Shown here in pieces: positions 40,465-41,122 of a stretch of 64,000 bases of DNA; the stretch's first letter is position 1, and each line of letters begins with the position of its first letter. A program made the translations under genes and the position numbers. Source of the DNA: Nitrospirota bacterium (GTDB taxonomy: Bacteria; Nitrospirota; Nitrospiria; Nitrospirales; NS-4); contig CAWBGA010000002.1 in NCBI GenBank assembly GCA_963788195.1, positions 170,543 to 234,542 of the forward strand, in the 5' to 3' direction. Below the pieces are notes generated by a model. The model made no database searches. It saw only the letters and a program-made list of their open reading frames with translations, and had not been told where the DNA came from.

Positions 40465-41073
40465 GTCTCTCGAGCAGTTGCCGGCGCCGCGTCAGCAATG
40501 CGGCCAATTCCTGCGTGCTCGCCTCTGGCAAAGGGCGGGGCGTCGGCCGTACCCGCTCGGCAAACTCGGCCAGAATCCCGGCATCCAGCCGATCGGTCTT
40601 GGCCAACCGGCCCATGGCTTTGGCAAAGTCGCGCACCTGCCGTGGATTGACGACACCACCGGGAGCCCTGCGGCGGCCAGCGCGCTCGCCAGACACATTT
40701 CCAAGCCGCCGGTGGCTTCGAGCACGACCAGCTGAGGCTGGCTCTGCTGCACGCGTTCCACCACCGCGGTGATGCCGCTGTCACTATGGACCATGCGACA
40801 TTGTTCCCCCGTCGGCCGCACGGCCACATCCAGATGCCCTTGCGAAACATCGATCCCAATAAACACAGGGACAGCACTCATGGTGCACCTCCGAGAAGGC
40901 CCGGTCTTGCGCAATGCGGGCTTCGGTGGCCCAGGCGACTGTACGGGCTCCTTCTGGTAACGGGCGTGACGACCTGGCTGAGCGACGGTCTCAGAGGACC
41001 CAGGATGAGTCGGTCTATCACGCCCTGGTTGTTGATGCACCATAGGATCCATCAGTGAGGATCAAGATACAAG
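40465..41073 (-). mobile_element. Truncated IS110-family (IS621-type) element: left end plus DEDD recombinase N-terminal half (ATG 40881)
   Basis: [36 protein letters not shown]-terminal domain and right end missing; left junction TGTCATC-CT-TGTAT. Confidence 0.9.
40890..41066 (-). ncRNA. Putative IS110 bridge RNA (target- and donor-binding loops)
   Basis: Two stem-internal loop-hairpin modules; loop strands TCATCCT/CGCTCAG and ACAGTCGCCT/GCAAG match the insertion junction. Confidence 0.75.
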
Positions 41074-41122
41074 GATGACAAGCAAAGGATTCAGGATGAC
41101 AGGCGAAGTGTTCAGAATGACA
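41074..41122. repeat. Three tandem family-A repeat ends (..AGGATGACA, TCAGGATGACA, TCAGAATGACA)
   Basis: Direct match to the ends of the 12756 and 49182 palindromes. Confidence 0.8.

Follow-up and report, generated by a model that had tools for sequence, protein, structure and literature searches.

What is written in a stretch of non-coding DNA that lies between one arm of a hairpin repeat and the remains of a recombinase gene? The question arises in a single intergenic spacer of a Nitrospirota genome, within a 64,000-nt stretch that was analysed as a whole and is called the window below. We argue that window positions 41073-40468, on the minus strand, are very probably the left 607 bp of an IS621-type element of the IS110 family; that the leader of this element encodes a bridge RNA specifying the target TCATC-CT-GAGCG; and that the copy in the window is a dead relic of a family whose intact members reside elsewhere in the same genome. 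The case is built by comparing the relic with those members, with a paralogous element, with relatives in other genomes, and with the published account of IS621.

A relic in an intergenic spacer

The source assembly consists of 18 contigs (3.26 Mb, 82.8% complete). By BLAST, window 41073-40468 corresponds at 99.8% identity to nt 1-607 of a 1165-bp IS110-family element, here called element A; with the left CT counted as nt 1-2, the body of the relic (element nt 3-607) occupies 40468-41071, minus strand. It sits in one hairpin-repeat unit of the spacer between a PEP-mutase-family gene upstream (42023-41148; PF13714) and a convergent DCC1-like gene (39935-40441), whose stop codon lies 27 nt from the end of similarity at 40468. 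Read along the minus strand, the spacer presents the following: a terminator-like hairpin belonging to the PEP-mutase-family gene and outside the element (41130-41144); a pair of incomplete repeat units in direct orientation, TGTCATTCTGAACACTTCGCC followed by TGTCATCCTGAATCCTTTGCT, immediately upstream of the insertion site (41081-41122); the left target half-site TGTCATC, which is the left arm of the family-A hairpin repeat (41074-41080); the CT core dinucleotide of the left junction (41072-41073); and a block that begins TGTATCTTGATCC and forms a leader of 190 nt, followed by an ORF with its ATG at 40881-40879. Arrays of partial units are also found to the left of other element-A copies. Similarity to element A ends after ...CTCGAGA. 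The sequence past the truncation (40467 downwards) was considered as a right arm of the target repeat and rejected, as its best local score, 7, was reached by 16.5% of 5000 random genome windows.

The ORF is a recombinase pseudogene (40468-40881, minus strand). It reads MSAVPVFIGIDVSQ..., suffers a 1-bp deletion after 40654 that puts the remainder out of frame, and is truncated at 40468. Only the first recombinase domain is left, itself frameshifted; D11, E55, D97 and D100 are retained, and the Tnp domain with Ser235 is absent. The extra G at 40654 is present in a contig of the intact form assembled from a DNA sequencing run. With a 1-bp frameshift and the right half missing, the window recombinase is, on its sequence, dead. 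The copy has no right end and therefore cannot excise, form a circle or form the junction promoter described below. The 5' non-coding part is identical to that of the intact copies; that is, the bridge RNA gene of the window is intact in sequence and is probably silent or only weakly read. The initial annotation had placed a bridge system at this spot. The coordinates of all the motifs it named are correct on the minus strand; its implied working system is not to be found in the window copy.

Intact copies and the sites they occupy

Searched against its own genome, the full element gives 11 BLAST matches, eight in family A and three in a second family, B. Five family-A copies cover at least 1149 of the 1165 nt. 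Those in C14, C3 and C16 are 99.7-100% identical across 1165 nt; one copy in C17 is 97% identical with a broken ORF, and a second C17 copy lacks the final 16 nt. The other three are fragments: the window copy (nt 1-607), one in C17 (nt 182-684) and one in C5 (nt 481-1165). The intact element, 1165 bp with the CT at both ends included, encodes a protein of 317 aa that scores above the cut-offs for both PF01548 (83.6 bits) and PF02371 (65 bits), and, with 225.5 bits, passes the cut-off of 140 set for NF033542, ‘IS110 family RNA-guided transposase’. All 120 homologues among the matches listed carry D11, E55, D97, D100 and S235. A public protein collection holds at least 8000 homologues at E 1e-20 or better among the matches listed; among these, the nearest non-self recombinase is 93% identical, and the few that bear names are called ‘IS110 family transposase’ and come from Nitrospirota or Nitrospiraceae MAGs.

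The target preference can be read from the leader and compared with the sites actually occupied. Within a putative target-binding loop, the left target guide UCAUC+CU (41002-41008, minus strand) has the sense of the target top strand and so would pair with the bottom strand; the right target guide CGCUC+AG (40978-40984) is the reverse complement of CT-GAGCG. Together the two would specify TCATC-CT-GAGCG. All six left flanks of A copies read (T)GTCAT[C/T]-CT. At the right, after ...AAGACAGTCG-CT, GAGCG follows in three of the four copies with an intact right end (C14, C16 and C17) and GAACG in the fourth (C3); the fuller right flanks are GAGCG(C)CAGCGAAGGATCT in the former three and GAACGGAGTGAAGAATCT in C3. 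Element A thus lies as TCATC-CT / element / CT-GAGCG within hairpin repeats, with CT at both junctions of full copies and no longer target duplication. Rebuilt pre-insertion sites agree perfectly with the guides in C14, C16 and one C17 copy, and carry one mismatch in C5; the C3 site, TCATT-CT-GAACG, has two. The flanks TGTCATC/CT...CT/GAGCG had been predicted from the loops before any full copy had been inspected, and the six left flanks and three of four right flanks bear the prediction out; no copy of element A lies at an unrelated sequence.

The second family provides a natural control. Paralogue B is present in three copies (C1:369767-370931, C2:443455-444619 and C17:507556-508717) and shares about 71% nucleotide and 68% amino-acid identity with A. 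Its architecture is the same, its left and right ends are as in A, and its donor loop is nearly identical; near its left end, 14 nt are duplicated in tandem. Its target guides are different, UUCGCCCU and GGCUCAG, and so are its flanks, which read TTCGCC-CT ... CT-GAGCC in all three copies. The outer stem of the target loop differs from that of A through compensatory changes. The guide-target overlap, core included, amounts to 7+7 nt in A and 8+7 nt in B. The proposal that the loops dictate the target is well served by this pair: donor ends are shared, target guides are not, and the flanks differ correspondingly.

Structure of the probable bridge RNA

The bridge RNA region has the IS621-type layout, with loops for target and donor after a 5' stem-loop, and the left-end non-coding part would encode an RNA of about 165-180 nt. 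The 5' stem-loop (UGAUG...CAUCA; 41033-41054, minus strand, like all features of the leader) was drawn by eye; in paralogue B, a stem of 7 bp occupies the corresponding position. The target-binding module (40962-41025) comprises an outer stem, GGGCGTGA/TCACGCCC (41025-41018/40969-40962), a second stem (41015-41012/40974-40971) and an inner hairpin, GGTC/GACC (41000-40987). The donor-binding module (40894-40955) has an outer stem in which 40955-40951 and 40948-40944 are paired with 40903-40894, and an inner hairpin at 40932-40918. Both modules are supported by the covariance-model fit. A minimum-free-energy fold does not draw the 5' stem-loop; in it, stretches of the guide segments are paired to one another, unlike the open loops of the model.

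Two lines of evidence support this arrangement. A covariance model was built solely from ten relatives found in other genomes; neither A nor B contributed to it. It matches 41029-40891 over all 139 of its positions (111.1 bits, E 5.4e-26), the sole other match in the window being at E 0.28; the resemblance to a bridge RNA lies far beyond chance. In the whole genome it finds exactly nine places, namely the six A copies that keep their left end and the three B copies. The earlier expectation that the region would suit a two-loop model is thereby upheld from end to end. The second line is a test of the author-drawn stems on the aligned leaders of 12 elements, with column shuffles (n=500) and slid partners as controls. 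Pairing is found in 87.2% of 345 cells, as against 82.2 +/- 0.9 in the shuffles, none of which (0/500) reaches the observed value; sliding the partner by one to three columns brings pairing down to 32-46% (maximum 45.9%). Two-sided changes occur in 13 of 30 stem pairs. The first helix of the target loop is 95% paired, with compensatory changes in seven of its 12 pairs; the outer part of the donor stem (helix 3) aligns poorly and is 68% paired.

Rfam 15, searched over 40300-41400 at E up to 10, gave no family at its gathering score. The best match is a weak antisense one to sX15 (26.4 bits, E 0.047, gathering score 55), a term that a full-text literature search found in none of the papers listed; a further weak match over the same interval is to Hrs10.

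Donor guides and a candidate junction promoter

The donor loop can be read in the same manner. The left donor guide, ACAGUCGC, followed by a 2-nt linker CU, occupies 40933-40942 (guide proper 40942-40935) and covaries with the right end across 12 elements. The right donor guide is split (40905-40915): AU at 40915-40914, three unpaired nucleotides, a G at 40910 that would form a wobble to T, and CAAG at 40909-40906. The left end of element A reads CT-TGTAT and the intact right end ...ACAGTCG-CT; ACAGUCGC matches ...ACAGTCG-C, and AU/G/CAAG matches CT-TGTAT. The two guides would then recognise the joined ends of a circle, ...ACAGTCG-CT-TGTAT.... The initial annotation had taken ACAGTCGCCT (40942-40933) as a donor guide in its entirety. 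The position holds; the ten nucleotides are better divided into guide plus linker, with no bulged match, because the left donor guide of IS621 is 8 nt followed by a linker of 2 nt. The right end foreseen from this loop, one resembling ACAGTCGCT, is indeed there: intact copies end ...TTGACATTCAAGACAGTCG-CT. The 10-nt right-end word has 15 matches in the genome, six of which are element ends and nine unrelated single matches.

Across the joined ends there is also a candidate promoter. TTGACA-N17-TATCTT spans the junction of right end, core and left end in both A and B, a pattern seen in sequence only; the spacer is 17 in nine of the 12 elements. The window copy keeps the -10 half, TATCTT (41064-41069), and misses the -35 half, TTGACA, which belongs to the right end. 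Excision of an intact copy would join right and left ends, creating this promoter for the bridge RNA; strand exchange at the CT core, carried out by the DEDD/Ser recombinase, would follow. RNA-guided recombination, a circular form and a junction promoter are inferred for element A by analogy with IS621.

A last element of the reading is the ‘handshake’ base directly 3' of each right guide: C at 40977 in the target loop and A at 40905 in the donor loop. In each loop, this base pairs with position 7 of the opposite substrate in ten of 12 elements. For the donor loop, element A belongs to the two that deviate: its A does not pair with target position 7 as specified by the guide, a C, and would fit the T found there in the TCATT variant.

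Relatives in other genomes

Guides that act as such should follow the flanks of the elements that carry them. Sixty-one genomes were searched, and 11 gave a match at E 1e-30 or better, the window's own genome included; the comparison set comprised 12 elements from these 11 genomes, ten of them foreign (50-64% identity) together with A and B, and their leaders were aligned. The longest exact match between guide and flank averages 5.9 nt at the left and 6.4 nt at the right when elements are compared with their own flanks, and 3.2 and 3.65 nt when they are compared with those of others. Cross-matches of at least 6 nt number three (left) and ten (right) of 132, largely between elements that share a target half. 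Three elements are weaker cases (G038, G042 and G060), with a left-flank match of only 4 nt. The donor side behaves likewise: where the donor guide varies, as T/C in ACAGT[T/C]G or as A/G in AC[A/G]G, the right end varies with it (A, B, G024 and G059), and in G034 the guide AU has become AC where the left end TGTAT has become TGTGT. Overall, the guides of the 12 elements follow the flanks of the element to which they belong.

The target repeat and its vacancies

The repeat in which family A resides has a unit of about 27 nt, TGTCAT[C/T/G]CTGA[G/A]CG[A/C]AG[C/T]GAAG[G/A/C]ATCT, present in 29 copies by a strict pattern and in 56 nhmmer matches at E<0.01. The layout of the unit may be written TCATxCT-GA-yCGAAGy'-GA-AGx'ATCT, and the x/x' and y/y' positions covary among the variants: C goes with G, T with A, and G with C. 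This concerted variation is compatible with a hairpin that has a stem of 5 bp, a pair of G-A oppositions and, as its core, GCGAAGC, a putative mini-hairpin of unusual stability. The CT core of recombination lies at the top of the left stem arm. As folded computationally, a single unit does no better than shuffled sequences (-1.6 kcal/mol, z 0.12). Adjacent units stand head-to-head in 13 of 14 pairs, and the copy number is modest.

The genome contains two RAYT-like genes (C13:171977-173578), with 81.3 and 75.6 bits against NF047646 (cut-off 80). That the family-A repeat is their cognate is not supported, as they are flanked by a different inverted repeat; for this reason ‘REP-like’ serves here as a description and not as a claim of membership.

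The guide-specified 12-mer, TCATCCTGAGCG, has no uninterrupted occurrence in the 3.26-Mb assembly, where 0.46 would be expected from composition. Near-matches are plentiful, with 88 sites at one mismatch or fewer and 646 at two or fewer; the commonest one-mismatch forms are TCATTCTGAGCG (16) and TCATCCTGAACG (14). The target had been described as the repeat consensus, and this does not hold: TCATCCTGAGCG is a minority variant, less common than either of these two forms. Four candidate empty sites had also been proposed. All are real members of the family, with mismatches to the guides of three (12734), one (12756), three (41091) and two (49251). In this assembly the perfect sites of element A appear to be all taken, given that the rebuilt sites are perfect in C14, C16 and one C17 copy and that no perfect site is empty; it also occupies imperfect ones. 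The target of B, TTCGCC-CT-GAGCC, is a different small repeat, of which two perfect empty sites remain.

Comparison with known systems

The comparison with IS621 was made with published descriptions (PMC11208160, PMC11208158) and not by direct alignment. In these, every guide of IS621 takes in the core, the left ones pairing to the bottom strand and the right ones to the top; reprogramming of the guides redirects insertion (PMC11208160); on the donor side, the left guide measures 8 nt and precedes a linker of 2 nt, the right guide is split into two bases, unpaired bases, a G-T wobble and four bases reaching to the core C, and donor positions 8-14 are C, T, T, G, T, A and T (PMC11208158). The catalytic residues reported are D11/E60/D102/D105/S241 (PMC11208158).

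Element A resembles this description throughout. Its recombinase combines a DEDD RuvC-like domain with a Tnp domain bearing a catalytic Ser, and, going by the published positions, D11/E55/D97/D100/S235 are comparable with the IS621 set (PMC11208158). Its left-end RNA has the 5' stem-loop, the target loop and the donor loop; its left guides have top-strand sense, and its right guides are complementary to the top strand. The core is CT and the right donor half CT-TGTAT, identical at donor positions 8-14 (PMC11208158). The left donor guide of 8 nt with its 2-nt linker, the split right donor guide with its G-T wobble, the handshake positions directly 3' of the right guides, the candidate junction promoter across the core, and insertion into repeated, probably extragenic palindromes are likewise in common with the published account. 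The parallels with IS621 that had been noted from the window, namely the CT core and the CT-TGTAT donor half, agree with PMC11208158, as do guide plus linker and the split right guide. The differences are of detail: the target is TCATC-CT-GAGCG (5+2+5) in element A and the 11-bp ATCAGGCCTAC (7+2+2) in IS621 as published (PMC11208160); donor positions 6-7 are CG and AT, respectively (PMC11208158); three nucleotides are unpaired in the split right donor guide of A and two in that described for IS621; and the recombinase of A, 317 aa long, is that of an uncultured soil bacterium. A distant blastn search of element A against E. coli genomes yielded only 153-nt matches (71%) to ‘IS110 family transposase’ genes; one locus so matched is a broken relative with the right end ...AAGACAGTTG-CT and the left end absent.

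A second parallel is found in Pseudomonas putida, where ISPpu9 and ISPpu10 are reported in several copies per genome, all in one repeated intergenic hairpin (PMC12288879; bioRxiv 10.64898/2026.03.19.712850). Element A shares this habit, several copies per genome each residing in a copy of one probably intergenic hairpin repeat, and differs in the repeat and in the guides. The target hairpin of ISPpu10 is reported to add specificity (bioRxiv 10.64898/2026.03.19.712850). In short, nothing sets element A apart from other IS110 elements of the IS621 type. Covariation of guides and targets has been published for thousands of IS110 elements, in an analysis of 5,511 ncRNA-target pairs (PMC11208160), and REPs have been described as insertion sites too (PMC12288879; bioRxiv 10.64898/2026.03.19.712850). 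The suggestion of an independent, naturally retargeted bridge system is supported by the data and yet overstated: natural retargeting is true of essentially every catalogued IS110 element. A literature search for papers combining bridge RNA, IS110 and Nitrospir* returned none.

Other readings of the locus

One could suppose that motifs of a GC-rich spacer, each no more than 5-10 nt long, have fallen into a two-loop pattern by chance. A covariance model that had been built without A or B nonetheless finds the region, at the same place in nine element copies, and the right end predicted from the loop is the one found in intact copies; such a coincidence is next to inconceivable. A reading with more to recommend it treats the structured leader as merely a cis-acting regulator of recombinase translation or mRNA stability, with the protein picking the target and the matches between loops and flanks arising as by-products. 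The older literature gave the ends of IS110 elements regulatory roles (as cited in PMC11208160), and in the minimum-free-energy fold the region of ribosome binding lies inside a long-range helix. This reading must be set against the loops themselves, which change with the flanks, between A and B and among the 12 elements, whereas the fold of the recombinase stays unchanged; against the handshake positions, which covary with the opposite substrate; and against the report that guide reprogramming redirects insertion by IS621 (PMC11208160). We regard it as highly improbable, and hold that the leader very probably encodes a guide-bearing bridge RNA.

Granting a bridge RNA gene, is the relic inert? 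Its RNA might be transcribed weakly or by read-through and load the recombinase of intact copies in trans, so that the dead copy would serve either as a decoy or as one more guide gene. The bridge RNA of IS621 works in trans (PMC11208160), and the chromosomal loci of integrated IS621 are reported to give weak bridge RNA (PMC13626964); weak expression of the window's bridge RNA is therefore possible, and its bridge RNA part is identical to that of the intact copies. No promoter-like site was found upstream of the relic, and the terminator-like hairpin at 41144-41130 lies between the relic and the gene before it. The perfect state of the gene reflects recent origin rather than selective retention, for the remainder of the fragment is equally 99.8% identical. 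Nor are any reads assignable to the window locus: a single 153-nt contig of a 97%-identical relative, covering 40861-41013, occurs in two metatranscriptome runs of one study, and a contig cannot show transcription; a third possible RNA run holds contigs of diverged relatives; and the contigs of the best DNA run include the intact element and lack the relic junction. A relic that still acts in this way is unlikely, and we favour a silent or weakly read one. A related speculation, which we hold to be unlikely, concerns the origin of the truncated copies, which, instead of having decayed at random, could be core-anchored, intramolecular footprints of the recombinase; the orphan bridge RNA gene of the window could then programme recombinase in trans. 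The deletion of the C5 fragment begins exactly where the left target half meets the core, and its flanks, put together, restore one complete repeat; the C17 fragment has an internal ...GGC-CT-G fused to the right arm of a repeat. Reports of aberrant or ‘half-match’ bridge recombination are so far confined to in vitro work and editing experiments (bioRxiv 10.64898/2026.08.31.748434), and the footprint reading, if true, would be natural evidence for it.

Meaning for the family

The current understanding of IS110 elements is unchanged by these findings, thousands of guide-target pairs having already been analysed (PMC11208160). What is added is one well-documented natural bridge-RNA system, in which the match between guides and flanks is clean (7+7 and 8+7 nt), and which comes with a built-in control: two paralogous elements of one genome share a donor module and target two different hairpin repeats. 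The census of vacancies, with no empty perfect site left for A and two for B, indicates that such elements use up their perfect landing sites. Element A could also be a further orthologue for bridge-recombinase engineering.

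A paralogue with a shared donor module and a different target

The donor ends and donor loop of element A, the 1165-bp IS110-family element, are shared with a paralogue, element B, which is present in the same genome in three copies (C1:369767-370931, C2:443455-444619 and C17:507556-508717). The target guides of B specify TTCGCC-CT-GAGCC, which differs from the A target and lies in a second small hairpin repeat, CCGTTCGCCCTGAGCCTGTCGAAGGGCG; the genome holds two perfect empty sites for it, and the left end of B carries a 14-nt tandem duplication comprising the core and the first 12 nt. 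Despite the common donor module, none of the nine copies of A or B in this genome was placed in the target of the other family.

The donor loop of element A has an A at the handshake position, directly 3' of the right guide (window 40905, minus strand). This base mismatches the C specified at position 7 by A's own left target guide; it would pair with a T at target position 7, that is, with the TCATT variant of the repeat, which occurs at the C3 and C5 sites of the element.

Repeat arrangement and fragment junctions

Family-A repeats adopt two arrangements: head-to-head doublets (as at window 12756-12809), and direct tandem arrays of 21-22-nt partial units, TGTCATyCTGA plus about 10 nt, found beside insertion sites. 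One such array adjoins the insertion site in the window (41081-41122, minus strand); a second lies to the left of C17:622519.

Repeat half-sites are also where the junctions fall in two fragments of A, those in C5 and C17. In the C5 fragment (C5:134971-135652), nucleotides 1-480 are deleted; the deletion starts exactly at the boundary between left target half and core, and one whole repeat is reconstituted from the two flanks. In the C17 fragment (C17:622018-622519), the right arm of a repeat is joined to an internal ...GGC-CT-G. These junctions, a single example of each type, are possibly footprints of aberrant recombinase events.

Other repeats and relatives

RAYTs are REP-associated tyrosine transposases; two adjacent RAYT-like genes, which score 81.3 and 75.6 bits against NF047646, lie at C13:171977-173578. 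On either side of the first stands one member of an inverted pair, AAATGGGGTCAGACTCGA / TCGAGTCTGACCCCATTT, that belongs to a different repeat family with about 13 copies. Near these genes there is also GGGACAGGCTACTT, another abundant word, present in about 34 copies.

E. coli carries a broken element of the IS110 family (NZ_CP023388.1, 135918-139271) that ends on the right in ...GGTCAAGACAGTTG-CT, the type found in the soil-bacterium elements; it lacks a left end and a bridge RNA region.

On the strand opposite the bridge RNA (window 40962-41025, plus strand), Rfam reports a weak match, below the gathering score, to the Xanthomonadaceae sRNA sX15 (26.4 bits, E 0.047). The match and the target loop of the bridge RNA share one layout, a stem, an internal loop and a GGUC-GACC hairpin; the sX15 model may describe, in one orientation, what is really the target loop of an IS110-type element.
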